Shown here in pieces: positions 22,951 to 64,000 of a DNA stretch of 64,000 bases. The stretch spans positions 79,448-143,447 of the forward strand of contig QPMI01000629.1 of NCBI GenBank assembly GCA_004431415.1. The letters run 5' to 3'. This DNA comes from Cyanophora paradoxa CCMP329. Lineage: Eukaryota > Plantae > Glaucophyta. The notes under the pieces were generated by a model that had not been told where the DNA came from, made no database searches, and was given only the letters and a program-made list of their open reading frames with translations. Position 1 is the first letter of the stretch, and each line of letters begins with the position of its first letter. The position numbers and the translations under genes are program-made.

Positions 22951-24312
22951 GGTGTACAGGTCTTCGAGTGAGAGGGGGCGGACGCTGACGAGGCGCTAAG
23001 GCGGTAGAATGGACGTACCCGTAATCGACCGTGGCGCCTACACTGCGAGCTGCCTTGAGAGACCGGCCGCCGCGCGCTCTAGATCTGAGTCTGCACGCGC
23101 TGGCCATGGCGCAGCGCGTCATGCATGCATTGCACGCACGCGCAGAAGCGTGCGCATGCAGCTCTGACCCTACGCCTGTCGGGAGTCCGGAGGCTCCCGG
23201 GAATCCGGAAGCCGCCGGGAATCCCGGTCTGCGGCGCGGGATTCCCGCGCGCCTAGCGCTGCCGGGAATCCAAAAGCCTGCCACGTGCACCGGGAACCCC
23301 GAAGGCGCTGGGAATCTCGTAAGCGTGAGATATTGCTTTCCGACGGCGCGCGCCCGCGGCCGAGCAGCCGAGCTCACGCGCGCCCGAGCTCGCGCTCGAG
23401 GCGCGGGCGCGGCGGGCATCTAAGAGCGAGGGGACGGTGGTCAGCGCATGCCACAAGCTCTAATGGGATCTTATTTACCGCTTGGAGGGCCGAGGAGCCC
23501 GTTGCTGAGAGAGTCAAAGTCGATGGTGCGCCGGCACACCATCGAAACGTTGCAAACTGGCCAGGGGGGAGCGGTGGGGGGGAGGGAGTAGGGGGGGTGG
23601 AACTGGAGCCACGTTGTCGCTACAACGTGGGTCAGATCTCAAGCCTGCGATCAGAATTTGAGGAACCAGAAGTTGCGAAACTACTACTACTACTAGGCTA
23701 GCCAAGGCGGCATGTAGGCGGCCTTGTTGCAATTGCCGCATGCGCATGCGCAGTGCGCCTTAGCTATAGAGCAATTACAACTACACGTGCACGTAGCCTA
23801 GCTATAGTAGCTTCGCCTAGTAGGGTAGTATGATCGATACGCGATATATGCCATACCGGACGTACCCCCCGTGAAGTAGGGGTTAGATGAATTAATGGAC
23901 CCGCACTAACACCGCGCAAGACGTCGGGGGGGCCCCTTCTAGCCCCTGGTATTTTTAGTGCGGCATAATGACCCGGTCCTGGGACCCTCGATCACGACTT
24001 CCGGGGGAGCCCCTTCCCTAGGAGAGGGGGGAAAGACGCGAGCAAGCGAGCCGGCGACGCCGGATTCGTGCACTACGCTCCCGGCTGCGCTAGTAGCGCG
24101 CTTGCAGCCGGCAGCGGGCGAGCCGGTGCGGCGGTGGGGCGAGATCAAATCGAGAGCGACTCCTGATCACCGAATCGGTGACTCACGAGTCGCTATGGGG
24201 GGGGGGTACAGCTAGCCGTTGGCGCGGGGGCCCCGGCGGGCGCCCTTAAAGAGATCCCGGGAGCGGCTCGAGGCTCGGGGATGGCAGAGGGGCGCGCGGG
24301 AACGCCCGTGGG

Positions 24313-26397
24313 ATGTTCTCCGTGGTGACAGACACCTACGAGAGGGCCGAGTTCCAGGGGCCCTACGGGTGGACGGGCCTGGTCGTGCTCCGCACCGACG
24401 CGGGGCCGAGCGTCTGCGTACCCGAGCTCAGGCGCCTCATCGCGTTCACGGGGGGCGACGCGCGCCTCGGGGAGACCTTTGGGGTCCCGACGCGGCCGCT
24501 GCGGGATGAGAACACGATCCTCCTCCTGGAGCACCTCGCCGCCCTCCCCCGCAAGCACTACGACGCGCAGGAGCGCCCGCCGCACGTCCTCGCCCTGCGC
24601 TACGTCGAGACGGTCATAGGCAACTCGTGGGAGCGCTCGCAGGACGTGCGCATGCCCCGGGCGGCGGCGGAGCTCTATGCGGCGCTGGAGAGGAGAAAGC
24701 AGGGCACCTTGCAGCGGCTCGAGATGCAGTTGATTCGGACCGGCGGCGATCGGCTCCTGGCCGTCCGGGCGCGGCGGATCGAGACGCCGGAGCTGCAGTG
24801 GTGGATCCCGCTCGCGAGCCTCGCCGAGGCGGCGTACGGCGACTCGCGCAGCACGAACTGCGTGCGCCAGGAGATCGTGAGGAAGCACCCCGACCTCGCG
24901 GTGGGCGGGCCTCACCGGTTCGAGGCGAGCACGCGGACGGTGGGGCGCGAGCGGCTCGCCCTCCTGACCCGCACCCTCGTCCACTACGGCGGCCTGGGCG
25001 CTGACGTGGCGACGTACGGCTCCGCGCGCCGCTGGGCGTTTATCAGCGCGCTGGGTGCGAAAAGGTGCTGGCGGGGCTGCCGGACCGGGCCCCCGGGCTC
25101 GCCGCCGAGTTTAAACGAGCGCGGCTCCTCCTGGAGGGGGCCGACCCCGCGACGCTCGACTCGGCCCCGTCGCTGCCGCTCGCCCCGGCCCCGCGCGTCT
25201 CCATCTTCGGACGCAAGACCTGGCTAAAGGTGAGCGGGGCCTCGGCGAGGTGGGGGGTAGGGAGGCGGGGAAGGGGGGGGGAGGGAGGGGGGGGGTACCG
25301 ACCACGCCGCAGGACGCCGAGATCGCCAACGTCCTCTCGCTCCTGCTCCTCCGGGCGCACGCGGGGGACAAGGTCAGGGCCCTGTACCCATGCACGTCGA
25401 GATTCTCGCCTCGCTCCTCCGGCGGTACGCGCGCGCCGACGAGGCCAGGCGCGCGCGGGAGCCCTTGGCGCCGCCGAGCGCGGCGCCTGCGTGCTCTGCC
25501 CGTCAGCGTGGGCAACCTGCGGCGCGGCGGGGAGCGCACAAAGGGATGGGCCTCGGGCGCCACTGGACCCTCCTCGCCGTCGACGGGAGCGCGAAGCGCG
25601 TGGGGTACTGGGACTCGCTCGGCGCGGACCCCGAGCCGAAGCTGCAGCACGCGGCGATGGCGGCCTTTCCGCGCTTCCCGTTCGTCGTCCAGACGGGCGG
25701 CCGCCTGCAGGTGGGGACGGGTATCAGTGTGCGCGCTCGCCCGCCCCCCTCCTCCGGCCCCCTCCCCCGCGCGCCCGCGCCCCCCCTCACCTCGCCGCCG
25801 CCGCCGCCGCCGCCGCAGGCGGGCCGTGGACCCTCTGGTTCGCCGAGGTGAAGACGCAAGAGGTGCTCACGGGCTTTCCCTGGTCCGACGAGATCGAGAG
25901 CGGGTGCCTCTCGTACGTGTACCCTGGCGAGGCTATCTCGTCGGCGATCGCGGCGGAGAACGGGCGGTTCATCGCGGAGAAGCGCGAGGCGTACCGGACG
26001 ATGCTGGAGAGCGGCGTCGTCGACCAGGCCGTGGCGCTCTTCGACGAAGACTCGCTGCCGGACGCGGAGCGCGTCGTCCTCCCGCCGTCCCCGCCACGGC
26101 CGCCGCGGCGGCGGCGGCGGCCGCCGCCGCCGCCAAGTCCGTTCGAAAGGCCGGCAAGGCCGCGGCCGCGGCGGCGGCGGGGGGGCCCTCCATCACCGTC
26201 CTCTCCTCGTCCTCGTCCTCGCCGTCCTCCGAGGACGGCGGAGAGGGAGACGAGGACGGGGAAGAATCCGAGGGGCGCGCCGACGGGGACGGGGCCGACG
26301 CGCCGGCGGGGACAGAGGAGGCCCTCGCCGAAGAGGTGCACGAAGATGGGGAGCCGGGGCCGAGCGGCTCGCGCCCTACGCCCTGCGCGAGTCGGAG
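24313..26397 (+). CDS. Bro-N-like DNA-binding region + Ulp1/SENP-type (C48) cysteine protease + acidic linker; probably the N-terminal part of the recombinase gene (frameshifted; introns 25230-25312 and 25729-25818)
   Basis: Bro-N-like: WWIPLASLAEAAYGDSRSTNCVRQEIVRKH...AFISALGAK...AAEFKR. C48-like: KTWLK|DAEIAN across an intron, HWTLLAVD (His), GYWDSLG (Asp), LQVGDGYQ C|GPWTLWF (Gln; the Cys codon is split by intron 2, and one 1-bp shift in a G-run is needed). Confidence 0.75.
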
Positions 26398-28065
26398 ATG
26401 TCACGGGAGCTGAGGAACCAGCTCGCGGCGTTTCAGACGTGGCGCACCTCGGCCCTCAACCCCGACCGCCAGGGCGGCGCCGCCGAGCGCTCGACGGTCC
26501 TCGTCAACGACGTCGGCACGATCTGCCGCCTGCTGGGGTACGTCAAGGAGCGCGAACAGGTCGGGCCGCTCACGATGGACCTCTTCGCGCGCACCGATTT
26601 CGAGGAGATCTACCTCCGCTTCCTCGGCTACCTCCGCTCCGAGCGCAGGCTCGCGGCCGGCACCCTCGCGGGGTACACGCAGAGCGTGATGCAGGCCTAC
26701 GCGTTCGTTCACAGCCGAACCGCCGGGGCCGAGGCGGGGGCCGATCGAGAGGGTCCGCACGCCCGCCCGCTCCGGAACCTGAAGACGCAGTTGGAGAAGG
26801 AGAAGAAGCAGCAGCGGGGGTGGAAGAAGCGCGGACCGAACTGGGTCTCGTTCGAGGCCGTCCTCTCGGCGCGGCGCGAGGCCCTCGAGGCGTTCGAGGC
26901 GGCGCCGCTCGAGCGGGACAGGGCCCTCGCCCTCCGCGAGGCCGTGCTCATCGGGTTCCTGAGCATCACGCCGGCCCGCGTGGGGGTCGTGCGGCGCCTG
27001 CAGATCGGTCAGACGCTGCGGCGCGACGGCGGCGCGTGGGCGATCTCGCTCACCGAGATGCGGCACGAATCGGGGGAGCTGGTGTCGAAGACGGCCAAGT
27101 CGCACGGCGCGATCACGGTCCCCATCGCCAGCCCGCTCCAGGCCCCCCTCGAGACCTACGTGGAGCGCTACCGCGGCCTCCTGCTGCCCGCCGGGCGCGC
27201 CGACGAGGGCTGGCTCTTCGCCTCGAGCAACGGCACCTGCCTCTCGGAGAGCGGGTGGGCCGTCTTCGTGCGCAGGGTGATGCTCAAGTACGTGGGCCTC
27301 CCGATCACTGCGAAGACGATGCGGGCGATCATCACGACGCACGTGCGGGAGCAGGCGGCGGCGAACCTGATCGAGAACGAGACCGCGGCGGCCGTCGTCG
27401 AGGGCGTCGCCCGCCTCCTCGCCCACACGCCCCAGACGGCGACCCTGCACTACGATTACGGGGCGCGCCAGCGCTCGGCGGCGAGCGCCGTGGCGTACCT
27501 CGAGCGCCTCGCCCTCCAGCACGAGGCGCGGTCCAGGGGCTCGGCGTCGAGCCCCACGGGCCTCCCGGGCGCCTCGTCGTCGGCGCCCCCGCCGCCCCCG
27601 CCGCCGCTGCCGCCGCCGCCGCCCTCCCTCCCCTGGAGGCCCTTCCCGAGCCGCCTCCAGATCCCGACCCCGCGCAGCACCCTCCTCCTCTTCCTCCTCC
27701 TCCTCGCGATCCGCGCGCGCAGAGGGCCCGGCGCCGTCGCCCGCCGTTGCGGCGCGGCCGGCCCGCGGCGCGGCCGCCGGGGGGAAGGAGAGCGGGGCGA
27801 GGGCCGGGCCGGGGAGCGCCGGGAGCTCGGGGTCGGCCCGGGCCGCCCAGGAGAGCACCGAGACGAGTTCGGGGTCGCAAGAGGAGGAGGCGGAAGAGGA
27901 GGAGGAGGAGGAGGAGGAAGAGGAGGAGGGGAGGAGAGCGGGTCGTCCGCCGAGCGGCCCCGGAAACCGAAGCGCTTCCACTGGCAGCGCCGCCGCCTCG
28001 ACCCGGGGACCAGATGGAGCTGGACTCGCCCGGGGCGAGGGCCGCTACTGCGAGACTGCAAGCGG
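26398..28065 (+). CDS. Tyrosine recombinase / integrase (core-binding + catalytic domain) with a Pro-rich and acidic tail; further 3' exons possible after GTAAG at 28066
   Basis: Core-binding-like helices (FLGYLRSERRLAAGTLAGY). Catalytic R in ITPARVG (26977), K in SKTAK (~27088), LFASSNG, KTMR at the HxxR position (~27313-27324), LLAH (27424) and Y in TLHYDY (27451). The catalytic domain is uninterrupted. Confidence 0.88.
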
Positions 28066-29499
28066 GTAAGGAACTCCCGCCCGCGACCCCCGAGCACGCG
28101 CGCCGCGCACCCTCACCGACTGTAGATCTTCCAGACGGCCGGGGGCCCGCCAGCACGCCCGGAGCTGTTCCGGCGGGGCGAGCCGCACGCGGGAGAGGCG
28201 GGGAGGGGCGCGGGGCACGGGCGAGGGCGCGGGCGGGTGCGGGTCGCCCGCGGCCCTCCCGCCCCGTGCACGTCGCGCAGCCGGCTTCCGAGGGGCCCCG
28301 CCTCCGACCTGGCACCTTCGGTGGGTCAGCGCGAGCCCGTACCCCCGGGCAGGTCGCGGCGGCGATGGCGACGCACTCGACGGACCCGCTCCGCGGACGG
28401 TCTTTGCTCGGCTCGTCCAGACCGTGCGCCTCCCAGCGGCGAGTTCGAGTCCCGCTGGGTCGTGCTGCGGCGCTTCGGGCCTTCTGGACGCCGGGCTCCG
28501 AGGGCAGCGCGCGCGAGTGGAGGGGGTACGGGCGCTCGCGCCCGTCGACTACGACGCGAGAAACGGAGCGTGGACATCAGGACGCCCGCCGCCCGCATCT
28601 CCGACCTCCTCGGGCTCGGCTCCGGCACGCGGCGCCGTCGCCGCCGCCTCCGCGGTCCGGGGCGGGAGCCCGGGGCGAGGGAGGGGCCTTTCGGCCGCGG
28701 GCCGGCCCCGGAAGCGCCCGGGTACCTGACTCGGGGGGTCGGTTCGGGCCCCAGCGCCCCAGGCTTGCGGACGCAGCCGGCGCGGTGCGCACCATCGGAT
28801 CCGCCGTGCTCGAGAGGGGCGGGCAAAACTCCAACGGGTCCTGGGGCGAAGGTCGGCTCCGGAGGGGAGGGGGGGTACGGGTACTTTGTGCGCACCCCCA
28901 CGGCGTGCCGCACCTCGTTCGATCGGGAATGACAAGGAGAGTGCGGAGAGGCGGTCGGCGGGCCTCGGGGTGCCGGGGTCGAGGGGTAGATCGAAAAAAC
29001 TGCGCGGGGCCGGTCTCGGGACGGGATGGGCGGCAGCGCGGGGCCGGAGGGCGAGCTTAAAGCGCACCGACGGTGCTGGGCACAACCGGAGCGCCCCGAC
29101 CCGCGATCGGGCGCGGTCGGGGGATGATGGAGCCCGCCGATCCTCCGTGCCTGCCCGAACCGACGGACCGCCGCCCGCAGAGGCTCTGCGCCCCTCCCGC
29201 GCGTTCTCCGCCCCCGCGACCGGATCCAAAGCGCCAGAAGCGCGCGCCGTGGCGGAGCAGGGGCCCGCGCTGAGCGGCGGGCGGGCGGCTGCGGCGCCGC
29301 CGCGGGGCGCCTGGTCGGGGAGGCGGCTGCGACTCCTGCGAGCCATGTCAGAGCGTAGCGGGGTGGAATCGGTGCCGAAATCGCACGCGGGCACGCCTCG
29401 TCCTCGGGAACGCGTGGGGAGCAGTCGGATGGCGCGGTCGAGCGGGCTGCGACGGATCGAGGAGCACGTGGGCGCGAGGGAAGAGCGATCGGGATGGAT

Positions 29500-30059
29500 C
29501 GGGGCGCGAGGCGCCGCCGGCCGCTCGCTGTGCGCCGATCGGTGCGCTCGGGGGTTGGGGCGCCGGGAACAGCACGGTCGAAGCACTCGAATGTGGACGA
29601 GCAGGCCGGCCGCGTCCGCAGCAAACACGAATCTCGCCGCGAGAGCTCCCGGGGGTACGCGGCAGCGGGCGGGGTACAAGGGGATCGTGCTATGCCCGGT
29701 CCGCCTGTAGTGTGCGTAAAGCTTAAGGCCGACGAACCCACAAAGTACGATTGGCCGGCCGTCGAGGCACCTCGGAGCCGAGCCGTCACGAGGTCCGCGC
29801 AGCCGCACGCCCGGACGTGCTCTATCGCCCCCGATCCGCCGCGCATCGTTGAACGGTCCGCCAGGGGAGCGCCTCGACCGCCTGCGCGGCTCCGCCTCGC
29901 CGCGGCGGTTATCGTTGCGAGGTGAGCGGCGCGGGACGCGCCGTCGCGACTTTGGGAGCTCGAGACGCGACGGTCGTTGGTTGAATGTCCCGTCTTCCCG
30001 CAGGAACGGCACTCGCCCCGCCCGCGGGCGCCCCGACCCTGATCACTCGTGCTGGCCAT
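29500..30059 (-). CDS. Possible Zn-knuckle protein (3' end undefined)
   Basis: MASTSDQGRGARGRGECRSCGKTGHSTNDRR has a CxxC-x3-GH knuckle resembling those of the 55846 gene. Confidence 0.4.
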
Positions 30060-30169
30060 GGCGCGTGCGCGCGCCGCGAGCGCGCCCGTCGCCGGCCCGT
30101 CCGCCTCGCGACTCGGCTCGCGTTTGTCCCACGACCCCTCGCACTCCGTTTGCCGAGCGCCGCTGCAGA

Positions 30170-32000
30170 GGTTCTCGCGCCCGTACGCGTGCGGCGGGGC
30201 CCTGAGGGGCGCGCGGCGAGTTTCCAGCGGGGTCCAGATTTGGAGGCGGGGTACGGGACCGCCCTTCTCCTCGCCCGCCCTCGGCTTCTCACGCCCGTGC
30301 AGCGGGGCCCTGAGGGGGGCGCGGCGAATTTCCAGCGGGGGAGGGTCGGGTCTGGAGACGGGTACGGGATTCCCCTTCTCTCCCTCGCCCACGGCTTCTC
30401 ACGCCCGTGCAGCGGGGCCCTGAGGGAGGCGCGGCGAGTTTCCAGCGGGGGAGGGTCGGGTCTGGAGACGGGTACGGGACCGCCCTTCTCCTCGCTCGCC
30501 CTCGGCTTCTCACGCCCGTGCAGCGGGGCCCTGAGGGGCGCGGGGCGAGTTTCCAGCGGGGGAGGGTCGGGTCTGGAGACGGGGTACGGGATTCCCCTTC
30601 TCGCGCTCGCCCTCGGCCTCTCACGTCCGTGCAGCGGGGCCCTGAGGGGGGCCCTGCGAGTTTCCAGCGGGGAGGGTCGGGTCTGGAGACGGGGTACTGG
30701 ATTCCCCTTCTCTCGCTCGCCCTCGGCTTCTCACGCCCGTGCAGCGGGGCCCTGAGGGGCGCGCGGCGAGTTTCCAGCGGGGGAGGGTCGGGTCTGGAGA
30801 CGGGGTACGGGATTCCCCTTCTCTCGCTCGCCCTCGGCTTCTCACGTTCGTGCAGCGGGGCCCTGAGGGGGGCGCGGGGCGAGTTTCCAGCGGGGGAGGG
30901 TCGGGTCTGGGGACGGGGTACGGGATTCCCCTTCTCTCACTCGCCCTCGGCTTCTCACGTCCGTGCAGCGGGGCCTTGAGGGGCGCGGGGCGAGTTTCCA
31001 GCGGGGGAGGGGCGGGTCTGGAGACGGGTACGGGATTCCCCTTCTCTCACTCGCCCTCGGCTTCTCACGCCCGTGCAGCGGGGCCCTGAGGGGGGCGCGG
31101 CGAGTTTCCAGCGGGGGAGGGTCGGGTCTGGAGACGGGGTGCGGGATTCCCTTCTCTTTCTCGCCCTCGGCTTCTCACGTCCGTGCAGCGGGGCCCTGAG
31201 GGGCGCGGGGCGAGTTTCCAGCGGGGGAGGGTCGGGTCTGGAGACGGGGTACGGGATTCCCCTTCTCTCCCTCGCCCTCGGCTTCTCACGCCCGTGCAGC
31301 GGGGCCCTGACTGGGGCGCGGCGAGTTTCCAGCGGGGGAGGGTCGGGTCTGGGGACGGGGTACGGGACCGCCCTTCTCCTCGCTCGCCCTCGGCTTCTCA
31401 CGCCCGTGCAGCGGGGCCCTGAGGGGGGCGCGGCGAGTTTCCAGCGGGGGAGGGTCGGGTCTGGAGACGGGGTACGGGACCGCCCTTCTCCTCGCTCGCC
31501 CTCGGCTTCTCACGCCCGTGCAGCGGGGCCCTGAGGGGGGCGCGGCGAGTTTCCAGCGGGGGAGGGTCGGGTCTGGAGACGGGGTACGGGACCGCCCTTC
31601 TCTCCCTCGCCCTCGGCTTCTCACGCCCGTGCAGCGGGGCCCTGAGGGGGGCGCGGCGAGTTTCCAGCGGGGTCCGGGTCTGGAGGCGGGGTACGGGACC
31701 GCCCTTCTCCTCGCTCGCCCTCGGCTTCTCACGCCCGTGCAGCGGGGCCCTGAGGGGGGCGCGGCGAGTTTCCAGCGGGGGAGGGTCGGGTCTGGAGACG
31801 GGGTACGGGACCGCCCTTCTCCTCTCCCGCCCTCGGCTTCTCACGCCCGTGCAGCGGGGCCCTGAGGGGGGCGCGGCGAGTTTCCAGCGGGGGAGGGGCG
31901 GGTCTGGAGATGGGGTACGGGATTCCCCTTCTCTCCCTCGCCCTCGGCTTCTCACGCCCGTGCAGCGGGGCCCTGAGGGGGGCGCGGCGAGTTTCCAGCG
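30170..32000. repeat. ~111-bp tandem array, ~17 copies, containing GGCGAGTTTCCAG (rc CTGGAAACTCGCC) and GGGGTACGGG
   Basis: TCACGCCCGTGCAGCGGGGCCCTGAG recurs about every 110-112 bp from ~30290 to ~31952. Confidence 0.95.
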
Positions 32001-32009
32001 GCCTCCTCG

Positions 32010-32980
32010 TACCTTCTGGAGACTCGCCACCACACCCGGTGAGAGGGGGGAGCGCTAGAACTCTGACCGTACCCCACACCCCCTACCCGCCCCCGAGACT
32101 CGCCGCCGCCCCGAAAGAGAGCGGCGCTTAATCTCTGACCGCACCCCTAGTCGCCTCCCTCCCGCCCCCTTGGAGACTCGCCGCTGCCCCCCAGAGAGAG
32201 AGAGTGGCGCTTAATCTCTGACCGTACCCCCACTCCCTCCCCCTCCCCCCTGGAGACTCGCCGCTGCCCCCCGAAGCAAACAGCTCTATAATATTGACCG
32301 TACCCCAGCTCCCTCCCCCTCCCCCCTGGAGACTCGCCGCTGCCCCGAAAGAGAGCGGCGCTTCATCTCTGACCGTACCCCCACCTACCTCCCCCTCCCC
32401 ATTGGAGACTCGCCGCTGCCCCCCAGAGAGAGAGAGAGAGAGTGGCGCTGAATCTCTGACCGTACCCCCACCTACCTCCCCCTCCCCCCCTGGAGACTCG
32501 CCGCTGCCCCCGAAAGAGAGTGGCGCTGAATCTCTGACCGTACCCCAGCCCCTCCCCCCTCCCCCCTGGAGACTCGCCGCCGCCCCTCGAAGCAAACGGC
32601 TCTCGAATTTCGGGCGTACCCCCCACGTACCCCCTCGTTCCAACTCCCCCGGGAGACTCGCCGCCGCCCCCGAGAGGGCGACGCTAGAAGCTCGGCCGTA
32701 CCCCCAGCTACCCCCTCCCTCCCTCCCTCCCCCCCCCCTCTGGAGACTCGCCGCCGCCCCCCGAGAGAGAGCGGCGCAAAAGCTCCGAGCCGTACCCCCG
32801 GGCAGCCCCACCCCACCCCACCCCCCTGGAGACCCGCCCGACGCCCCAGAACGAGCGAGCTTCGGCGCCCCCTGGGCCATCGGCGCGGGGGCGCATGGCG
32901 CCCCTGAAACTCCTCTACCCCCCTGCCTCTTGCGGCGCGGTACCCCCCTCTCTCTCGCTTGATCGCCTTGCGGGCGCGAC
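32010..32980. repeat. ~60-bp degenerate tandem array (~13 copies) with CTGGAGACTCGCCG and CCGTACCCC, plus a unique tail
   Basis: (G)GAGACTCGCC occurs at ~32018, 32095, 32172, 32252, 32327, 32404, 32492, 32568, 32652, 32741, each accompanied by a CGTACCCC-like motif. Confidence 0.9.
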
Positions 32981-33247
32981 GTCGCGACGACGGGGTTCCC
33001 TTGGCGCGCGCAGATCCCTCGCCGAGGGCCCGCAGCCGCACCGCGCTCCGCGGCCGGGCCGTGCGCCCGCGCCCCGCCCCGCCCCGCCCCGCCCCACCCC
33101 CAGCGCCCTCCCCCTCGCCCCCTCCCCTCCCCCCGCCCCCCCCCCACCTCCGCTCCCCCTTTTCCTCCCGCTCCGTGCGATCGACTCGAATAAAAGGGAC
33201 CCGATCCGCGTTGGCCCCCGGGGGCGAGAAGAGCGGGGCGGGGCGGA

Positions 33248-35057: not shown

Positions 35058-35367
35058 TATATCGATATCGATTGAATTTCGACGACTCGGCGAGTACCGT
35101 AGTACATGCGCGCGATCGGGGCCGGACACCAACGCGATTATAAATAAAAACATCAATCATAAAACTTGCGAGCGAGCGAGCGGGTCGAATCGAAGAGGAA
35201 GGTAGGATGATAAATTTGGTCAAGGCCCGAAAGGAATTCGAAACGAACAGGCACATGCCATGATGGCCGGCAGCCTCGAACAAACAGGATCAAACAGAAA
35301 AGGAAATTCGAAACGGGACGAGGAACGCATCTAGAGCCTAGGGGGGGCGGGGAAGGACCCCCTTCTA

Positions 35368-36255
35368 ACCTTCTCGGCCCTTCTGGAAAGAGTGCTTTGA
35401 TAAATATTGCCGGCTGTCTGGTGCCCTAATTAATCTCGAGAAGTCTAACCTTCTTCCGCTCCGCGATATTCCTGCGGACGTGTGGCCTAGCGTCGAGGAC
35501 TGTCCCTGGCGGCGTCTCCAGGTGACGGATCTCCCTCCCGCTGAGAAAATTCGCAAGTACTTGGGCTTTCCGCTTGAGCCCAATCTGTCTCGATTCTGGC
35601 GTAAGAAAAATGCTGCTCTTGATATTCGTGTGCAGCAAGCGAAAACCTATCGCATGCCGATGCGCTCCGGCGTTCTCCTTGCCTGGGCGGTCTTTATTGG
35701 ATCCCTGCATTATGCTCTGTATTTGCTTGACCCCCCCGATGCCCAGTATTCTACATGGCAAGAGAAGCTTCGCTCTTTTGCCGGCGTGAGTGGGCAACTT
35801 TCGAAGTATATTTCTCCTCTGCCGTGGCATCAAGGTGGTCTCAATTGCCCTGATATTCGTGTCTTTTCTTTATCACTGAAAATGAAGTGGGTGGCCTTGT
35901 TGGCTGACCCGTCCTGTTCGGCTCCTTGGAAGGAGTACCTCTTGAGCAAACTGGACGTTCAGCTGGCGCCCTTTTCCTACGGCCCCGCCTTTATCTCGCT
36001 TCGTCTCCCACTTGGCGGTCTTGACTTGCCTCCTATTTGGAAGCAGGCTTTCTCGGAGTGGGCTCAGCGCCAGGGCGTGTGTCAACCTCGTACTTCACTC
36101 GAAGTTTTATCCCAACCTCTTTTCTTTAATCCCTTGTTCGATGCTCCGGGTGCCGAGGTTGACTGGAGTCGCTGTGCACGGTCTGGCTTGCTGCGGGTCT
36201 GCGATATCTGGGATTGTACCACCCGGCGATTCCGGACTCCACCAGCTGCCTCCAA
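35368..36255 (+). mobile_element. Non-LTR retrotransposon (L1/Tx1-like) ORF2 fragment: end of RT, thumb and downstream region; truncated at both ends
   Basis: LSGALINLEKS...KYLGFPL...GGLNCPDI...LKMKW...PLFFNPLF...GLLRVCDIW. T-rich composition differs sharply from the flanks. Confidence 0.85.
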
Positions 36256-47010: not shown

Positions 47011-47114
47011 CGCCCCCTGGGGCCCCGCCCCGCCCCGCCCCCCCCGCCCCTCCCCTCTCGGACTCATCGGCCCCTCAATTCGACAGGGCTGCGGGCGGAG
47101 CGCGGGGGGCGCGG

Positions 47115-54397: not shown

Positions 54398-54716
54398 GCA
54401 CCCCCCTCCTGTACGCGAGCACCTCTGAACGCGTGCGGCTCCCTCTTCCCTCGGTGTTCGGGGGTGGGGGGTACGGGGGGCGGGAGGGAGGGGAGGGGAG
54501 GGGGAGGGGCCCGGGCGCCCCGCCCCGTTCCGCCCTCGCAGGGCTCGCAGCCGGCCGTTCGCGCTCCAAAGGTGCGGCGTACCCCGCCCTCCCCTCCCCC
54601 CTCCCCCCGCCTCCGCTTACCCCCTCGTGACAGGGCCCGTTCGAACGAGGCCTTCGCATGCGCCCTCTCATCTGAGCGATTCCCTTTTCGGGTATTTTTC
54701 TCGCGCCCCGCCGCAC

Positions 54717-54725
54717 TATAAAAAA
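54717..54725 (+). promoter_or_regulatory. TATA box (TATAAAAAA), duplicated at ~55788
   Basis: 58 bp upstream of ATG 54775; the duplicate is 58 bp upstream of ATG 55846. Confidence 0.6.
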
Positions 54726-54774
54726 GATCGCGCCGCCCCCGAAACCTCACTCTCAAGTTTCGCAGCTTCGCAAC

Positions 54775-55472
54775 ATGAGCTCGGCCCTTTCCGTCGCGTC
54801 CTCTCTCGACATGATCGACCCGGCGCTTTTCGGTCGCGACGGCGCGCTCTTCTCCTGCGGCGCACCGGCCCCGGGCGGCCTGGACTCGGCCCGGCTCCCT
54901 CCCGTCGCGTCGATCCTCGCCGCCGCGCCCGACGCGGAGAAGGAGAAGCTCATGGAGAAGGAGCTCGTCGGGGCGCTCGACCTCTTCGCCTACAACTCGG
55001 CCGTACCCCAGGGCGGCGACTTTAATGAGGGCGGCTTCGACGTCTGCGTCGTGGCGATGGGCGGGCGGACGTACGACGTGAACGCGGAAAAGGAGAAGCC
55101 CAAGGAAAAGGAGCTCGTCGGGGCGCTCGACCTCTTCGCCTACAACTCGGCCGTACCCCAGGGCGGCGACTTTAACGAGGGCGGCTTCGACGTCTGCGTC
55201 GTGGCGATGGGCGGGCGGACGTACGACGTGAACGCGGAAAAGGAGAAGCCCAAGGAGAAGGAGCTCGTCGGGGCGCTCGACCTCTTCGCCTACAACTCGG
55301 ACGTACCCAGGGCGGCGACTTTAACGAGGGCTGCTTCGACTTCTGCATCGTGGCGATGGGCGGGCGGACGTACGACGTGAACGCGGCGGGGCAGAGCATG
55401 GCGCGCGTGCGCCGTTTCGCGGAGCCGGCCGTCCCGCGCGCCCTCTTTGCTCGCTTCGGATTCGACAGCTAG
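54775..55472 (+). pseudogene. Chimeric duplication: N-terminus of the 55846 gene + 3 x 150-bp copies of helicase motif V + helicase C-terminus
   Basis: EKEKLKEKALVGALDLFAYNSAVPQGSDFNEGGFDVCIVAMGGRTYDVN (51910-52058) is recopied at ~54931, 55081 and 55231. Region ~54354-54925 is duplicated at ~55428-55990. Confidence 0.85.
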
Positions 55473-55845
55473 GCACCCCCTCCTGTACGCGAGCACCTCT
55501 GAACGCGTGCGGCTCCTTCTTCCGTCGGTGTTCGGGGGTGGGGGTACGGGGGGCGGGAGGGGGGAGGGGGGAGGGGGAGGGGCCCGGGCGCCCCGCCCCG
55601 TTCCGCCCTCGCAGGGCTCGCAGCCGGCCGTTCGCGCTCCAAAGGTGCGGCGTACCCCGCCCTCCCTCCCCCCTCCCCCGCCTCCGCTTACCCCCTCGGG
55701 ACAGGGCCCGTTCGAACGAGGCCTTCGCATGCGCCCTCTCATCTGAGCGATTCCCTTTTCGGGTATTTTTCTCGCGCCCCGCCGCACTATAAAAAAGATC
55801 GCGCCGCCCCCGAAACCTCACTCTCAAGTTTCGCAGCTTCGCAAC

Positions 55846-56454
55846 ATGAGCTCGGCCCTTTCCGTCGCGTCCTCTCTCGACATGATCGACCCGGCGCTTT
55901 TCGGTCGCGACGGCGCGCTCTTCTCCTGCGGCGCGCCGGCCCCGGCGGCCTGGACTCGGCCGGCTCCCTCCCGTCGCGTCGATCCTCGCGCCGCCGCTCG
56001 TCGCGACCCCCTGGCTCCCTCCCGCCGCCTTTGAAGCCTGCAAGGCGCCCTCCCGTGGCCCCGCGTGGACGCGGACGCGACGGCGCCGGCGCCCGCGGGC
56101 CCTCTTCAGGATCCCCTCGCGCCCCTGCCGCCGAGCCCCGCGGCCGGCACCCCGAGCCCCGCCGCGCCCGCAGGGCCCCCCTCTGCGCTTCCCGTCGCCG
56201 TGCCGGCCCCGGCGCGGCACGTCGACCTGGGCCCGTGCGCCCCGCTCAGGCGCCGTCGCGTCGTCCGCTGTTCCGTGTGCAGGCTCACGGTACGCGCTCG
56301 CGAGGCCCGGGGCGGGCGGCGCGGCGCGGCGGGCGTCGCGCGGCGATCTGACCTTTTTCCTGCGCGCGCAGGCCACAACAAGAAGACCCACGACCGGTTT
56401 GTCCTGGGCATCGTGCCCGTGTGGAAGAAGCGGCGTCAGTGGCAGCGCAAGCGG

Positions 56455-56493
<39 letters not shown>

Positions 56494-56740
56494 CCGCGAG
56501 CTCCGCCGCCCCGCCTCGACGTCGACGGGCGGCAGGGTGATGCACTGCTGCGAGTGCGGCATGGAGGTGAGTCCACCGGAGGGCGCGTCGTGGGGGGCGA
56601 CAGGGGGAGGTGGGGGGGGGGAGGGAAAGGGGGTACGGGCCCGATCTGACCCTCGTTCTGCGCAGGGCCGCAACTCCAGGACGCACCACGGCCCGCGGAT
56701 GCACTGGCGCAAGAAGCGGGAGAGCGACTACGAATACTGA
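55846..56740 (+). CDS. Protein with two Zn-knuckle-like motifs, each split by an intron
   Basis: CSVCRLT|GHNKKTH (intron ~56290-56371) and CCECGME|GRNSRTH (intron ~56567-56665); ends RESDYEY*. Confidence 0.65.
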
Positions 56741-56813: not shown

Positions 56814-57119
56814 ATGACGCTCCGCGTGGAGGGAAGGCTGCGGATCGGGCCCAGCGCGGAGGGCCCGGCGCGCGTCGAGGTGGACCTCGACGCGGACGAG
56901 ACCCTGGTGGCGACGGCGGGCGAGGAGACGCTCTGGGTCGTCGCCCGCGACCGCGTGCGCGCCCTCGACGCCCGCTGCTGCGCCTGGTCCGTCGAGTACA
57001 AGTTCTCCTCGCCCCTGAGCCGCGTGGAGGGCGCGCCCGACGGCTCCCTCGTCGTCTTCTTCGAGGGGGGCGGCCTGCGGTACCTCCCCAAGCCGACCGT
57101 GGACAGGTGGGGCCTCTGA
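56814..57119 (+). CDS. Hypothetical 101-aa beta-rich protein (partial propeller-like)
   Basis: Clean ORF with GC3 bias; CATAAAGGGG lies ~57 bp upstream. Confidence 0.55.
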   Translation: MTLRVEGRLRIGPSAEGPARVEVDLDADETLVATAGEETLWVVARDRVRALDARCCAWSVEYKFSSPLSRVEGAPDGSLVVFFEGGGLRYLPKPTVDRWGL

Positions 57120-59179
57120 ATCCCGCTGCCCGTGCGCCGCGCGCTCGGACGAACAAAGTCCTCTAGATCGAGCCTGGCCCCTCCCCCTCCCCGTCCCCGC
57201 CGGCACATGTTGGTCGAGTTTTGCTCGTTCAAGTTGTATTGGATCGCGAGGTCGCTCATATGCATTTTCAATGCAGATGCGCGGGAGGGCGCCTGGGGGG
57301 ATAGGGAGGAGGGGGGGGGGGGGGTCGGCGGCGGGGTACACGCGGATGCTGCGAGGCGAGAGGCCTCGGCCTAGGGCGGGCCCCTCGGGGTGAGCGGGCG
57401 AGTCTCCCGTGTGGAAATTCCGGAGGGTCTCTCGATCGGGGCGCGACCGGGGTCCTGGAGAGGGGCGGGCGACCGCCGTCTCCCGCCGCGCCGCCGCCCC
57501 GTGCGGCGAGCCGCGCCGCCGCCAGCCCCGCCCGCCGAACCGCGCCGCCGCCGGCCGAGCCCCAGCCCCGCCCGTCGAGCCGCGCCGACGCCCGCCACGT
57601 CCCCGCCCCGCCCGTCGAGCCGAGCTGCAGTCAGCCAAGCCCCCGCCCCGTGCAGCGATGCCCCATAGATGGGCCGCTCACCAGGCGTTCGGTGTACATG
57701 CATGGCTCAACCACCTGCGCACGCACGGGTCAACCGATGAGGCAGCCGGGGCACAGGGCACCCAAAGCGCACGAAATAAGGCCCTTGAACCCTGTGTCCC
57801 TCGGCAGCGTAAAGTCTATGCCGGCTGCGGCGCACGCGACGGCTGCGGCGCCGGCGCACGCGACGGCTGCGGTCGATCGTCGCCGGCGCGGAGCTGGACA
57901 GGCGGGAGATCTCGCGCAGCGTGCAGCTGCTCACGAGCTTCCAGGGAGCAGTATGCCACGCTCCGAGCTTCAACGTGCCTCGATTCGAGCGCCCCGAGAG
58001 CACACGCGTACGCCGCCCCAGGAGATCCAGAGGCCCGCGTAGCTGGCCGGAGTACTGCGCATGCATCGCTCAGCACCCCGGCCCATGTCGCTGAGCACGT
58101 ACAGCCACTCCTGCTCACGCACATTTCCTTCGGCATCTGAAGGGACTTGCCACCCAGACGCAGCGGCCGCCGGGAGCGGGCTGCAGGCAGAGCTGGAGCT
58201 AGCTATCGACAACGCTTGACGAAAGCTCAGCGCTAGCCCGTGCTCACGGCCGCCGCGAGAACTGCAATGTGTATCCCCATCCTCTCACCCTCCCCCCCCC
58301 CCAGAAAAAACAAAAACTCCTGCACTATTGATATCTAGATCTACCGGTATTTGAAATTGGCACCCTGGCCCCGCAGGCCGCCCCCCCACCCCCCCACCCC
58401 ACCCCTAACATCCAAAGGCTATAGCAGCCGGACTCGAGCTCGTGCAAACGACGTTGGGCTGATCGCGAGGCCGGCCGGCCGCGATTATGAAATTGCGCCC
58501 CAAATTAAATTGCGCGCGCGACTGCGGGCCCTCAAGAGGGACGAGGCGATATATATGTGTGCATTACAGCTTCATTTGGATAGCCACTGCGCCTGGCCTG
58601 TCGGTCGCGATCTCTCTCATGAGAATCACGTGCACTGTCATGCAGCGAGACGGCGCAATGATTCATTATTCAAGCATGCGCATGCGTGTATGCATGCTCG
58701 TAAAAATGCGCAATATGAATCGATCTTTTTTTAAACATGAAGCTCGCGACTCGAATTCCGGATCCGTCGACACGTGCACGGATGTGCGCGTTGAGTGCGC
58801 GCGACGTGAACATTTCCACGGCCGGCCTGGTTCGGCGAATTTTGAAACTCTCAGGCTCTACGTCGTTCAAGACAATTTAGAACGGAGAACTGACGGATAT
58901 TAATTCGAGATGCGGATATATATGTATATATATCGATCGAAATTAAATTCGACAACGTGCGAATTAAACGATATCGGTATACGTATCGATTTCGATGGAT
59001 GGCCGTCGACTGCGCGCTAAATAGCTGGATATAGAGTGCATTACGACTCTGAGCCGGCGGCGGCCTCTGTCTCGACCTGAATCGAGCACGCGCATGCGCA
59101 CGTGCCTTCGATCTTGCGGACATCGGGCCCGTTCCCGCAGGAGGGGCCGAAAATTCCGCGCCTAGCGCTGTCATCACCT

Positions 59180-59883
59180 TTAATTTCTTTGCGAGGCCCC
59201 GTTTCGTGCACGATCCTCGAGGAGCAGTTTAAACGCCTTGGCGACGGTTTCGTTCGGAAACCCGTGTGCCACCGCCCGAATCTTGATCGGTCCGCGGGCC
59301 ATCTCGAAGAGGCCGAGCCGCGCAGCTCGGCAAACTTGCGCTTGAGGTTGGACGAGCAGCCGACAAAGGCGGGGAGCTGCCTGGCGCCGCCCATGACGAA
59401 CACGACGGGCTGCTTGGGTCCGAATTTGTCCGAGAGCTCCACCGGGGCGGGCTTTGCGTTTGGGTCCCGAACGTGAACGGCCCTGTTCGGCGCCGGCGCC
59501 GAGGACGCTGCGTCGCGACCCGCGGCCGCGTCGACGTCGCCGGCCGCCTCGCCTCGCGATCCTGCCCCTCTGCCCGCGGGCGCGCGCCTGCGCCCGGAAT
59601 CGCGACGCAGGTCGACGTCGGGGCCGGGATCCGGAGGCGGCTGCGTTCGAATCCGGCGCCTCCGAGCGCGAATCGCGCTCGCGATCGCTGTCGGCCGCAG
59701 CGCCTGCACCGAAATCGATAGCGATGGGTTCGGCGCGGGAGATTTCGGAGGTGACGACGGCGCTTCCCGACATCGATCGGGATCCTGATCGATATCGTGA
59801 TCGTGGTCGGCGGCGGGGCCCGATCGCTTCGAATTCGGGCTCGACGTCGACATCCCCTCTAGCGCCTCGAGCTTCGGGGGCAT
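59180..59883 (-). CDS. Degenerate SLX1-like GIY-YIG domain protein (probably inactive; frameshifted)
   Basis: PVVFVM..PAFVGCSSNLKRKFAELRG [shift] ..RGPIKIRAVAHGFPNETVAKAF resembles SLX1-type VY.L..YVG.T....RL.QH..RPW....V.GFP....AL.FE, but the Tyr, Arg and Glu residues are substituted. Confidence 0.5.
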
Positions 59884-60299
59884 GGTGCTTCTATTTATCC
59901 GCGCCCAGGCCCTCACACTCTTGAGGGCGGCTTTGTTTCGGCCGACGTGCGCTGCGGGCGGCCCGAGGTTTACGAGTATGTATATGTGCGTATGCGGGGA
60001 GAATTCGAATCGAACTGCAGCGCTAGCTGGATCCGGATCGGGCCTGCGTCGACGTTCCGTCGACCTAGGCCTCCCGCCCGCCGTTGCCCGCGTCTCCCGC
60101 GCGGACTGCTTTATAAGCGAGCGCATGCACGGCCCGGGCCCGGGGGACCGGGCGGGGCGGGGGTGCACGTGCCGAGGCGGCGGGCGGGGTGCGTGACCCG
60201 CGAGTCGCCCTCCCTCTGGACGTTGGCCGTACCTCCTCCTCCCCTCCCGGGCCCCCCTCCGGAGACTCGCCGCCACCCCCTCTGGAGGGAGCGGCGCTC

Positions 60300-61625
60300 G
60301 CGCGTCGTCCGCAAGGCGAACGAGTGAAAGGGAGGGAGGGTGCCGCGCCGCAAGAGGCAGGGGGGTAGAAGAGTTTCCGGGCGCCATGCGCCCCGCGCCG
60401 ATGGACCAGGCCTAGGGGGCGCCGAAGCTCGTTCTGGGGCGTCGGGCGAGTCTCCAGGGGGGAGGGGGGGGCCGCCGGGGGTACGGCTCGAGCTTTCGCG
60501 CCGCTCTCTCTCGGGGGCGGCGGCGAGTTTCGAAGGGGGGGGGGGGGGAGCTTGAGGGGGGTAGCTGGGGGTACGAGCGAGATTCTAGCGCCGCCCTCTG
60601 TCGGGGGCGCGGCGAGTCTCCGGGGGGGTGAAACGAGGGGTACGTGGGGTACGGTCGAGATTCGAGAGTCGTTTGCTTCGAGGGGGTGGCGGCGAGTCTC
60701 CAGGGGGGGAGGGGGGAGGTAGGTGGGGGTACGGTCAGAGATTCAGCGCCACCCTCTTTCGGGGGCGGCGGCGAGTCTCCAGGGGGGGAGGGGGAGATAG
60801 CTCGGGGTACGGTCAGAGATTCAGCGCCACCCTCTTTCGGGGGCGGCGGCGAGTCTCCAGGGGGGGTGGGACGAGGGGCACGTGGGGGTACGGGAGAAAT
60901 TATAGAGCTGTTCGCTTCGAGGGGGTGGAGGCGAGTCTCCAGGGGGGGAGGGGGAGGTAGGTGGGGGTACGGTCAGAGATTTAGGGCGGCGCGGCTCTGG
61001 ATCTCTCTCGGGGGCGGCGGCGAGTCTCCGGGGGGGTGGGACGAAGGGTACGTGGGGGTATGGCCGAGATTATGGAGCAGTTCGCTTTGAGGGGGTGGCG
61101 GTGAGTCTCCAGAGGTAGGAGGAGGCCACCGAAACTCGCCGCGCCCCCTCAGGGACCCGTTGCACGGGCGTGAGAGCCAAGGGTGAGCGAGCTCGAGGAG
61201 AAGGCCGGTCCCGTACCCCGTCTCCCAACCTGGACCCGCTGGAAAACTCGCCACGCCCCCTCAGGGCCGGCTGCACGAGCGTGAGAAGCCGAGGGGGAGC
61301 GAGGGAAAGGCCGGTCCCGTACCGGGACCCATCTCCCAAACCTGCCCCCCGCCGCTGAAACGCGCCGCGCGCCCTCAGGGGCCGGCTGCACGAGCGTGAG
61401 AAACCGAGGGGGAGCGAGGGAAAGGTCGGTCCCGTACCCCGTCTCCCAAACCTGCCTCTGCCGCTGGAAACTCGCCACGCGCCCTCGGGGGCCGCTGCAC
61501 GGGCATGAGAAACTTTAAGCCGAGGGCGAGCGAGGGAAGGGCGGACCCGTACCCGTCTACAAACCCGCCCCTGCCGCTGGAAACTCGCCGCGCGCCCCTC
61601 AGGGCCCGCTGCACGGGCGCGAGAA
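60300..61625. repeat. Diverged inverted copy of 30170-32980 (unique tail + 60-bp array + ~4.5 copies of the 111-bp unit)
   Basis: GCCGCAAGAGGCAGGGGGGTAG..GGCGCCATGCGCCCC (60347-60394) is the reverse complement of ~32886-32936. The array junction at 61100-61155 is the reverse complement of ~31972-32030. Confidence 0.9.
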
Positions 61626-61659
61626 TTCGGAGCCGAGGCGAGCGAGGAGAAGACCACCA

Positions 61660-61885
61660 CCCCTCCCCTGGAGACTCGCCGGCTCCCCCTCTGAGAGAGC
61701 GGTTGCTCGAGATTTGATCGTACCCTCACCAACCCCCGCCCCCCGCCCCTGGGAGACTCGCCGGCTCCCCTCGGAGAGAGCGGCACTCGCGCGTCGTCCG
61801 TACCCCGCCGAATGGAAGATGAAACCCCGCCTCCCGCCCCTGGAGACTCGCCGCCGACCCCTCTGAGAGAGCGGCGCTCGGGATA
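61660..61885. repeat. Three further GGAGACTCGCC..GAGAGAGCGG units in + orientation
   Basis: GGAGACTCGCC at ~61670, 61752 and 61842. Confidence 0.75.
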
Positions 61886-62186
61886 CGCAATATATATAAG
61901 GAATGCGAGAGGTCTAGATCGCAGAGGGACCGGAGCGTGCGGCCAGAGCACCTTCAGGTGATCGCGGTCAGGGCTCAGATTTCGAAACGATATAAAGGAA
62001 CGCGCGCGCGCGCGCCTCTATCTCTGCGCACACGGATCCGGGCCGGGCGGGCACTCACGACACGATCCATAGATTGCGATCGATCGAAACTGGGTTCGCC
62101 CCAAGATTCGTGATCGCGATCGGCGGCATAAATTTCAGACCGCTTTCCACAGAGCCCTCAGTCCCCACACCGCGACGAAAACGATC

Positions 62187-63107
62187 ATGAGCAGTTGCGT
62201 CCACCCTTACGTCGCGTCCCGGGGCCGAGGGCGACGTGTGCACGTCCTGCGGCATGTGCCTCGACGCGTACGGGTCGTACGCGACGCCCCTGGGCCTCGT
62301 CTGCGACGAGCAGGGCGGCGCCGGCGTCGCGTCCTCGCACGATCGATATCTGCAACTGGGGCTGGATCTGCTACGCGATATTCCAGAGCCGGCGCCGCGC
62401 ACGTGCACGTGGCAGCCTTCCAAGTCTAGTTCTGCGCGCGCAATCCCGAGCTCGAGCGCGCACGGTACCCACGCGAATATGAATCGCACGGAGCTGGATC
62501 AGACTGTGAGGGAGACGGCAGAGCGCATGCTCCTCCCGGAGATTGTCTGGCGCGAGGCCCTGGAAACGCTCCGCGAGAAGCGCGCCGTGATCTCGGGGAG
62601 GCGGTACACATCCTCGCCCTCGCGGCCCTCTATCTGGCCGTCCAACAGCTCGATATCCTCGTGGGATACACGATTTCGAGCACGCGGCCCCTCCCGAGGC
62701 GCGCCACGAGGTCCGAAAGTACGTTCGCGTCCTCTTGGAGGCGACGCCGGCGCCGGCGCCGGCCGCGGGGCCCCCGCGGGCGATCGGCGCGAGGGCCGTC
62801 GCCTTCACACGTACGACTTGGGCGTGTCCCTCGTGGAAAGCGTCGGAAAGAATATTGGAATCGACGGTTCGATCATCTCGGCCGCCCAGAAGCGCTACAG
62901 AGAGTACTGGAGGCGGGACGAGCTCGTTCCAGGACCCCGAAGATCCTAGCGATAGGGGCGCTCGCGCTCGCGGCCAAGCTCTCCGCGCGCTTCCTGGTCC
63001 ACGCGAAAAATCGCGATTCGAGCCGGGGCCTCTCCTCGACCGCCGCGCGCGCTGCGGTCAGGGAGATGAGGGCACGGCTCGGGATAGACCTAGATCTAGA
63101 CCCGTAA
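62187..63107 (+). CDS. TFIIB-like protein (Zn ribbon + two cyclin-fold repeats), intronless, frameshifted
   Basis: SCVH...DVCTSCGMCLD ribbon. Repeat 1: AERMLLPEIVWREALETL..ISGRR..LALAALYLAVQQ. Repeat 2: VGKNIGIDGSIISAAQK..KILAIGALALAAKL. Confidence 0.65.
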
Positions 63108-64000
63108 TCAAGTGCTAGAACTCGATCGATATCCAGATCTAGCTCGAAATTGACTTTGTCATGTGAATATTTGTATACGTAGCCTGGATGATTTTCCGCA
63201 GAAACTTGAAATATCGCTAGCCATGATATCGATCATGATCATGAATTTGAATATAGATTAATATATTCATCTGGAGCAGATCCTAGCTATAGTTATGACG
63301 AGTCAGTTGAATAAACAAATCTAAAGCTCACGATGAAGACTCTGAGATGAAAACTACGATATGCATATGGCAGCGCATCTGCAGCGATCGCGATACATGT
63401 ATACCGTACAGGCATGATTATGGACAGAGGGACGCGCCTAAAAGGACGCGCCGGCCCGCGCCTCATGGCATGTACACGGTCAGCCCTCTCCGCAGAAATT
63501 CGAATCCGTGACCATCGAGGTGGACGACGCCTAGCTATAGCTCCTTGAGAGTATAGTTGAACATCGCAGGCCTATAGCTAGGTGCGCGCGCACCGGCTGC
63601 GAAATTTTCAGACGTCTCACGGGGGATTCGAAAATTCGTATTCACAGCCCAGGCCATGTCCACGCACACTCATATTGCCTAGACCATCGCAGCGCGTCGA
63701 GGTCGAGGCATGGCATCTGCAAACTCGCCCCCCAGCCGCGATCGCGATCGCGATCGCGATGAAGAGAAAGATCTAGATCCGGGTTCCGGATCCGGAGCGA
63801 GCGCGAGGGGGCGGTTGCTGCCCTCCGCCGAGCTCGGGGGGCGGGTCCAGGCCCCTTTCGACTCCCGCCCGCCAAAGTCCAACTTCCAGCGTACCTGAGC
63901 GTGGGGAGGGACCCGGCCCTCGCCTTTCGCCCCTCGTGCGGCGCGATGCCAGGTCGAGCGGGTCCCACCCCATCGTACATGCTTCCCTGCGCCGTCTCGC

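Follow-up and report, generated by a model that had tools for sequence, protein, structure and literature searches.

A putative family of virus-derived elements in Cyanophora paradoxa that combine a UL9-type primase-helicase with a protease-tyrosine recombinase fusion

We analysed 64,000 nucleotides of GC-rich eukaryotic DNA from the glaucophyte Cyanophora paradoxa CCMP329 (contig QPMI01000629.1, positions 79,448 to 143,447; the whole stretch is hereafter called the window) and found in it an element that encodes both a UL9-type primase-helicase and a fusion of a protease with a tyrosine recombinase (Table 1). With a probability of roughly 0.55, this element is one member of a C. paradoxa family of virus-derived elements, which carry these two genes, contain no recognisable capsid gene in 40 kb, and are likely multi-copy nuclear replicons that would excise and re-integrate. 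The element is apparently at least 40 kb long and present in several copies. An earlier note on the window had proposed a virus-like element with its own recombinase and primase-helicase, common promoter spacing and repeat blocks, and in this respect our analysis supports it. A full-text literature search, for which most subscription journals and bioRxiv supplements were out of reach, retrieved no published description of the element.

Table 1. Features of the window. Limits of the parts are approximate, as the exon coordinates of several small genes are unrefined.
Feature	Position	Strand	Remarks
Tandem 1.1-kb units, mirrored arrays of another repeated word	13200-23100		GTACCCC in common with the element; uncertain whether part of it
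Protease-recombinase fusion gene	24313-28720	+	about 1,300 amino acids, predicted introns; N-terminal region without assignment, Ulp1/C48 protease, tyrosine recombinase (26398-27540), C2H2-like finger, C-terminal domain
Candidate frameshifted gene	28900-30059	-	Zn-knuckle-like motif at start, by eye; in the sole poorly covered bin of run X1 (29404-30070, depth 19.5)
Mirror block A	30188-32990		111-bp array (11-bp word on - strand), then 76-bp array (word on + strand), centre near 32005
Intronless open reading frame (ORF)	33248-35054	+	about 600 amino acids after error correction; one ORF of capsid size
Lower-GC insertion	35343-36256	+	914 bp; missing from some copies (joint 35342>36257 in X1 and X2)
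Multi-intron AAA+ ATPase gene	36900-41350	-	Vps4/spastin/CdvC-like, long N-terminal part; spliced in RNA-like runs; absent from the earlier note
19-bp inverted repeat, 10-bp spacer	41645-41692		candidate recombination or hairpin site
Spliced transcript, no recognised product	42090-43000	+	four skipped stretches, two verified GT..AG; may derive from another locus
Block B	45568-47037		151-bp array, 11-bp word alternating in orientation
Orphan ORF	47118-47597	-	160 amino acids; common promoter spacing
C3HC4 RING protein gene	48150-48675	-	Pfam E 5.5e-8
GT..AG intron	48652-48714	+	removed in two RNA-like runs; transcript antisense to RING gene, running into helicase start
Primase-helicase gene	48871-54397	+	AEP primase, Cys-rich (likely Zn-binding) linker, UL9-like SF2 helicase, long C-terminal region; about 1,800 amino acids in a single chain, no intron evident
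585-bp direct duplication	54353-56740	+	copy 1 drives chimeric ORF; copy 2 drives intron-containing Zn-knuckle gene
Orphan ORF	56814-57119	+	101 amino acids; common promoter spacing
GIY-YIG/SLX1-like ORF	59170-59884	-	motif-level, apparently degenerate
Mirror block C	60298-61900		inverted copy of block A, 78-81% identical
TFIIB-like ORF	62187-63090	+	CxxC ribbon and two helical repeats; motif-level

The primase-helicase, the recombinase fusion and their paralogues

The profile of the helicase family, compared with PDB, gave four matches, all of them to UL9 of herpes simplex virus 1 (HSV-1; E 3.6e-5 to 2.6e-4), and four environmental matches in the helicase search carry the Pfam domain Herpes_ori_bp. 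Motifs I-III of the AEP primase align in three of six family members (P0001, P0003 and P0004), are degenerate in P0009 and P0011 and are absent from the shorter P0006; the sole profile support for the primase was a match to LigD Prim-Pol (E=0.0097), obtained with one paralogue. The single-chain primase joined to an origin-binding-protein-like helicase that had been predicted earlier is borne out by the exclusive HSV-1 UL9 matches in PDB and by the primase motifs. The frameshifts in this gene are largely assembly errors. In short-read contigs of public runs many single letters are added relative to the window (as seen in the differences listed, which were 12 out of 112 and 12 out of 54), which indicates that most frameshifts result from errors of assembly rather than from decay.

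The helicase core also matched the CyRepA1 profile of NCBIfam (NF042913, E=4.7e-11), at 42.3 bits against a cut-off of 200. Since this profile also matches in 7 of the 14 control genomes, and no tblastn match was found in PLSDB plasmids, a cyanobacterial origin of the gene is unsupported. A single primase-helicase initiator is nevertheless a property that the element shares with cyanobacterial CyRepA1 plasmids and bacterial integrative elements, the low score being borne in mind. Within the 585-bp duplication, the chimeric ORF (54775-55470) consists of the duplicated promoter and 5' segment joined to three 150-bp copies of the helicase motif-V region; the same arrangement occurs in P0001 and P0002 and hence is not private to the window.

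The recombinase core of the fusion gene matched two NCBIfam profiles, XerC (E=1.4e-6, covering profile positions 2-267) and XerD (E=2.3e-4), with scores that in both cases fall well short of the curated cut-offs, and integrase clusters of the ESM Atlas at 0.97-0.98, while its paralogue P0021 matches PHROG integrases at E 4e-4. The first Arg, Lys and second Arg motifs are kept in the window and in all six paralogues; the second His and the Tyr were identified by eye. For the Ulp1/C48 protease, Pfam C48 was matched at E=0.004 and, with the family profile, ChlaDub2 in PDB at 2.7e-6; its His and Asp motifs are present in six of six paralogues and the Gln/Cys motif in five. Both the recombinase and the Ulp1 domain joined to it had been predicted earlier and stand on these matches. 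The same prediction included a Bro-N domain, which found no match in the Pfam, NCBIfam or PHROG profile searches. The fusion gene has full-length paralogues of 942-1346 amino acids; a protein search confined to near lengths yielded no match for the recombinase, and an IMG/VR scan just two weak loci (26% over 96 amino acids). A small nested palindrome (24145-24200) lies immediately upstream of the gene, and a variant contig of run X1 (depth 89) swaps 37 of its bases.

The relatives of both genes point to one lineage. The best 11 of 16 helicase matches and all seven recombinase matches are EukProt gene models bearing Cyanophora-assembly contig names, with the species given as Cyanophora paradoxa for the ten best helicase matches and for P0010. 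At least seven other contigs carry helicase paralogues that are 26-40% identical over the core, and two (tig00000526 and tig00021440) carry near-identical copies. In an unrooted tree, six Cyanophora helicases are split from four environmental UL9-like proteins by a 100/100 branch. The recombinase paralogues are 57-92% identical. The nearest relatives of both proteins are therefore lineage-restricted paralogues and not the host-type orthologues that the earlier note had considered as a ground for rejecting the element. No relative of the helicase, the TFIIB-like protein or P0014 was retrieved in IMG/VR scans, and metagenome scans gave none either; such scans catch close relatives only.

Linkage of the two genes, judged from EukProt contig names and gene numbers, recurs on tig00020553, where a helicase paralogue (g10527) lies 13 gene models away from a recombinase (g10514) that is 92% identical to that of the window. 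This helicase is only about 26% identical to that of the window, and the pairing of a close recombinase with a distant helicase would fit module exchange within one family. On tig00000269 two recombinases are found ten gene models apart. One EF-hand gene model (P0024, tig00000448_g882) ends in a short stretch of recombinase, which suggests a decayed insertion.

Repeat blocks, promoter spacing and sequencing depth

The 11-bp word GGARACTCGCC has 56 matches in the window (0.19 expected), every one of them within 30215-61852, where it forms blocks A, B and C. The claim that repeat motifs tie the genes together is thus upheld across that interval and does not extend to the recombinase region, which has no copy. 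Block A is a candidate replication origin. The mirrored or alternating layout of the word would correspond to the geometry of origin-binding sites, a comparison drawn from UL9 biology. Each unit of block B is composed of a GT..AG intron-like part of 64-68 nt holding one 11-bp word and an exon-like part of 83-87 nt; the block could therefore be a repeated exon, or else an origin array that resembles introns. An unrelated set of degenerate short direct repeats is located at 43880-44620.

The inverted blocks A and C, about 80% alike, enclose 31.7 kb and leave the recombinase outside. The yeast 2-micron plasmid, which is likewise capsid-less and multi-copy, pairs a tyrosine recombinase with inverted repeats; it has no replicase, and its repeats are identical, unlike blocks A and C. 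We rejected flipping between the two blocks in the manner of this plasmid: their central spacers are about 17-21 bp long and differ, whereas recombinase cores would not differ between partners, and no strand-change joint is present among the joints listed (15 of 742 and 15 of 95).

To the left, each of about eight 1.1-kb units (13200-23100) has an AT-rich palindrome and copies of a 19-bp word that point both ways; these units are possibly the origin array of a sister helicase type. The word GGGGTAC (142 matches against 6.8 expected, none before 13.3 kb) is common to these arrays and to those of the 11-bp word. Farther left, at 3376-8573, three tandem units of ~1.9 kb with 149-bp sub-repeats are lower in GC and have no motif in common with the element.

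The shared promoter spacing proposed earlier was confirmed. Of 11 gene starts in the element, nine have the sequence TAAA at -53 to -66, compared with 28 of 450 ATGs (binomial P about 7e-10; the starts were hand-chosen, and two of the nine represent one duplicated segment). Genes as far as 38 kb apart, those of the recombinase, the helicase and the TFIIB-like protein, have this spacing in common, which the AAA+ and GIY-like genes lack.

In sequencing run X1, all 16 listed element contigs (23.4 to 63.7 kb), including the window's own recombinase allele, have a depth of 151-404 (median 297), compared with a median of 59 for 14 of 17 single-contig joints. These joints are unrelated contigs matching by about 20 bases, and three element-to-element joints were dropped. 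The depth of the element is about 5-fold that of unrelated contigs in X1, an indirect measure, as contig depth is not a copy number. Copies that do not have the 914-bp insertion are present in both X1 and X2. The high depth persists to at least 63718, so that the unit runs beyond the right end of the window; given this, and the absence of the 11-bp word from the recombinase region, the limits of 24200 and 63110 proposed in the earlier note cannot be taken as the ends of the element.

Splicing was seen in runs X3, X17 and X19, which we call RNA-like: none is on record as RNA, and we took them to be RNA from their GT..AG skips. The intron at 39966-40060 of the AAA+ gene is removed in such runs, as is that antisense to the RING gene, whose start codon lies inside the intron of a + strand RNA spanning 48067-49085. 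The highest-depth spliced transcript of these runs (56-93) is that at 42090-43000. Such splicing points to nuclear transcription.

These observations suggest how the element might be maintained. The helicase would bind the 11-bp word through its C-terminal region, and the copies of the word, which face in opposite directions within blocks A, B and C, may play the part of herpes oriS boxes or plasmid iterons. Opening of the DNA would fall to the SF2 domain and priming to the AEP domain, and host polymerases would elongate, because no polymerase gene was found in the element. The recombinase might excise a circle and re-insert it, or resolve multimers. Transcription would be carried out in the nucleus by host RNA polymerase II, as the two transcripts spliced in RNA-like runs partly show, and the TFIIB-like protein would help to select the TAAA box situated at a fixed distance from the intron-poor genes. 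The Ulp1 protease, the RING protein and the AAA+ ATPase would possibly counter silencing based on SUMO or ubiquitin.

Alternative readings and relation to known elements

No capsid, packaging ATPase or polymerase was detected in the 40 kb with Pfam, NCBIfam and PHROG profiles and a Walker A scan, nor was there a match there to VLTF2, VLTF3, PolB, A32 or PCNA. In the six-frame scan, the only contiguous Walker A in a coding frame of the window was that of the helicase, the other matches being non-coding, and the intron-split ATPase is Vps4/spastin-like; no A32/FtsK packaging ATPase was thus recognised in the window. The earlier statement that no capsid is seen therefore stands as far as profiles go, for the 40 kb in view, and hallmark genes of a known virus group, which had been held to speak against a new element, were not found in the window. 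The same applies to pPolB and the rve integrase, in agreement with the contrast drawn earlier between the element and Polintons (Mavericks).

Several points weigh against the reading as a family of capsid-less, virus-derived replicons. Profiles barely detect even the real domains of this DNA, so that a divergent capsid could be missed, and there is a precedent for this in some polinton-like viruses (PLVs), whose capsids, according to the consulted part of the source, escaped HHpred (PMC11296320). The right end of the element is outside the window and the left end is undefined, which leaves room for capsid genes farther out. Neither an att site nor an empty chromosomal site nor a circle junction was observed. 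The 11-bp word does not reach the recombinase, the linker at 29.4-30.07 kb is nearly uncovered in X1 (depth 19.5), and the His of the recombinase HxxR is replaced by Lys or Gln. Only one of nine helicase-bearing contigs gave a recombinase match, and the other eight, tig00000526 and tig00021440 included, gave none. Finally, the depth ratio is only about 1.6 in run X2, where 8 element pieces were compared with 5 of 6 joints, the sixth, an empty-site joint, having been dropped; this low ratio could reflect real variation or a GC bias at low depth.

The best of the alternatives, which we nevertheless consider unlikely, is that the element is a fragment of a larger endogenous virus replicating in the nucleus (a nucleocytovirus, mirusvirus or similar), with capsid and packaging genes located outside the window or on other segments. 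The persistence of high depth past 63.7 kb would accord with this. So would SmDNAV, of the proposed Ariadnavirales, for which the consulted portion of the description (10.64898/2026.08.29.747986) reports an AEP-UL9 primase-helicase, a TFIIB homologue, an AAA+ ATPase, no polymerase and dependence on the nucleus, the likeness in TFIIB being motif-level on the side of the element. SmDNAV, however, is described there as a full virus with virion genes, VLTF2/3 and PCNA, and its AAA+ protein is ORC-like and its recombinase YqaJ-like. Further points against the larger virus are the failure to detect VLTF2, VLTF3, PolB, A32, PCNA or a capsid in 40 kb, the low gene density and the presence of introns, and the IMG/VR and metagenome scans, in which no relative (close ones being detectable) was found.

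It is more doubtful still that the window holds a patchwork, made up of a helicase unit with blocks A and C as its borders (30.2-61.9 kb), an independent neighbouring Crypton-like element that contains the recombinase and the other repeat word (13-29 kb), and an AAA gene captured from the host. The 11-bp word does end at 30.2 kb, another word occupies 13-23 kb, and the linker between them is poorly covered in X1; the 92%-identical recombinase mentioned above lies near a helicase only about 26% identical to the window's; and the AAA gene is intron-rich, has no TAAA spacing and shows about twice its neighbours' depth in X2. On the other hand, the promoter spacing and the X1 depth range extend to the recombinase and TFIIB-like genes, although these two lie outside A-C, and the recurrence of recombinase-helicase linkage on tig00020553 would fit module swapping in one family.

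Cryptons and Starship/Enterprise elements are also eukaryotic DNA moved by a tyrosine recombinase without a capsid. To our knowledge, neither has a primase-helicase or iteron blocks, and Cryptons are compact and have no replicase of their own. The ends of Cryptons are short direct repeats. The element has a tyrosine recombinase as the putative mobilising enzyme, as Cryptons do; it differs from them, as already stated in the earlier note, by its primase-helicase, which is located in the same high-depth unit and has the same promoter spacing, subject to the doubt about linkage raised by the patchwork. Transpovirons are reportedly capsid-less multi-copy DNA as well, although small and dependent on mimivirus factories, unlike the element.

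PLVs have an integrase (tyrosine recombinase or rve) plus a replication gene (pPolB or primase-helicase), and such a pair is present in the element. According to the parts of the sources consulted (PMC10120064; PMC11296320; PMC12220804), they are integrated in protist genomes, including that of this species, sometimes carry a GIY-YIG gene (motif-level in the element) and have inverted repeats proposed as origin and recombination substrate. The element differs from them in its length of at least 40 kb, UL9-type SF2 helicase, recombinase-Ulp1 fusion and introns, and in that neither major or minor capsid nor packaging ATPase was detected. In the SF2_hel subset of Yaraviridae (Mriyaviricetes), as far as the consulted part of the description goes (10.1101/2024.02.29.582850), an intact AEP is fused to a UL9/R8/pF1055L-like helicase, there is no DNA polymerase, and genomes are of 35-45 kb; the element has the same fusion and a similar size, and no polymerase gene was found in it either. 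Mriyaviricetes are defined there by five nucleocytovirus core genes including the capsid, none of which was detected in the element (no Pfam match, at low profile sensitivity), and no tyrosine recombinase is mentioned in that part.

The least probable explanation is a PLV or mriyavirus whose capsid, encoded by the ORF at 33.2-35.1 kb, has diverged beyond detection and which uses a CE-clan protease for maturation: in the portions of the sources consulted, PLVs often pair a tyrosine recombinase with a primase-helicase and a supplement lists 366 PLV-type capsid matches in this genome (PMC10120064), some PLV capsids are missed by HHpred (PMC11296320) and some mriyaviruses carry AEP-UL9 (10.1101/2024.02.29.582850), but no packaging-ATPase Walker A is present in the window, the unit is longer than such insertions, for which 15-30 kb is given, its protease is of Ulp1 type and joined to the recombinase, and the only Atlas family lead for the ORF is WD40-like.

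PLVs, mriyaviruses and SmDNAV are all defined by virion genes, and none of these was detected here, which sets the element apart, with the reservation that profile sensitivity is low and the right end lies outside the window. It is classed as of a recombinase-plus-primase-helicase kind. More tentatively than its membership in a C. paradoxa family, we suggest that it may belong to a new class of mobile DNA in eukaryotes, that of integrative nuclear plasmids. These would be the counterpart of bacterial integrative plasmids, and the element would derive from a DNA virus that shed its virion. Such a plasmid would copy itself by means of one UL9-type primase-helicase acting on its cognate iteron word and integrate and excise by the SUMO-protease-recombinase fusion; its copy number would vary between cultures, and helicase-plus-iteron modules would be swapped within the family. 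Capsid genes are the starting point of surveys for endogenous DNA viruses in protists (PMC10120064), and such surveys would by design miss replicons that have no capsid. If the family is real, it bridges Cryptons, which have a recombinase only, and polinton-like or dwarf viruses, which have a full virion; it would also provide a cultured host for testing origin recognition by single-chain AEP-UL9 proteins, and possibly an episomal vector for glaucophytes.

Other genes of the window

In the product of the AAA+ gene, the Walker A, Walker B, sensor-1 and arginine-finger motifs follow each other in order. Pfam AAA support was weak, 15 of 18 weak PDB matches were to Vps4 or spastin, and CdvC was matched at E 0.011. 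The RING gene predicted earlier is confirmed by its Pfam match.

Other predictions of the earlier note fared less well. A TFIIB-like factor, considered to be the element's own transcription factor, is suggested by motifs: 'GR..AALY.A' is in register with the first cyclin motif of archaeal TFB. The ORF had no match in Pfam, NCBIfam, PHROGs, PDB or the protein search, and scored no better than shuffles against an archaeal TFB profile, a narrow one of 82 haloarchaeal sequences (it was equalled by 493 of 857 scored shuffles and, in blastp, by 52 of 300). A single-sequence fold of this ORF was of low confidence, with a predicted local distance difference test (pLDDT) of 43, as was a second such fold (36), and fold searches with them gave no usable information. 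For the beta-propeller, the only Atlas family lead of the ORF at 33.2-35.1 kb (WD40-like) reached 0.89, below the recognition threshold. The SLX1-like GIY-YIG ORF had no profile match and its motif is degenerate, and the Zn-knuckle genes were recognised by eye, with no confirmation by any tool.

The N-terminus of the orphan ORF at 47118-47597 has what we take to be a resemblance to the histone H3 tail (no Pfam match); no histone H3 was recognised in the window by a scan that did not cover short spliced exons. No Rfam match was obtained in the window. The 914-bp insertion looks like a fragment of a non-LTR retrotransposon (no profile match). Between the two left-hand arrays, at 9434-10800, lies a codon-biased, probably spliced gene of no recognised family, and the left edge of the window (1-2520) is occupied by a host-like, intron-rich gene which ends in a Ser/Pro-rich region and a likely transmembrane segment.

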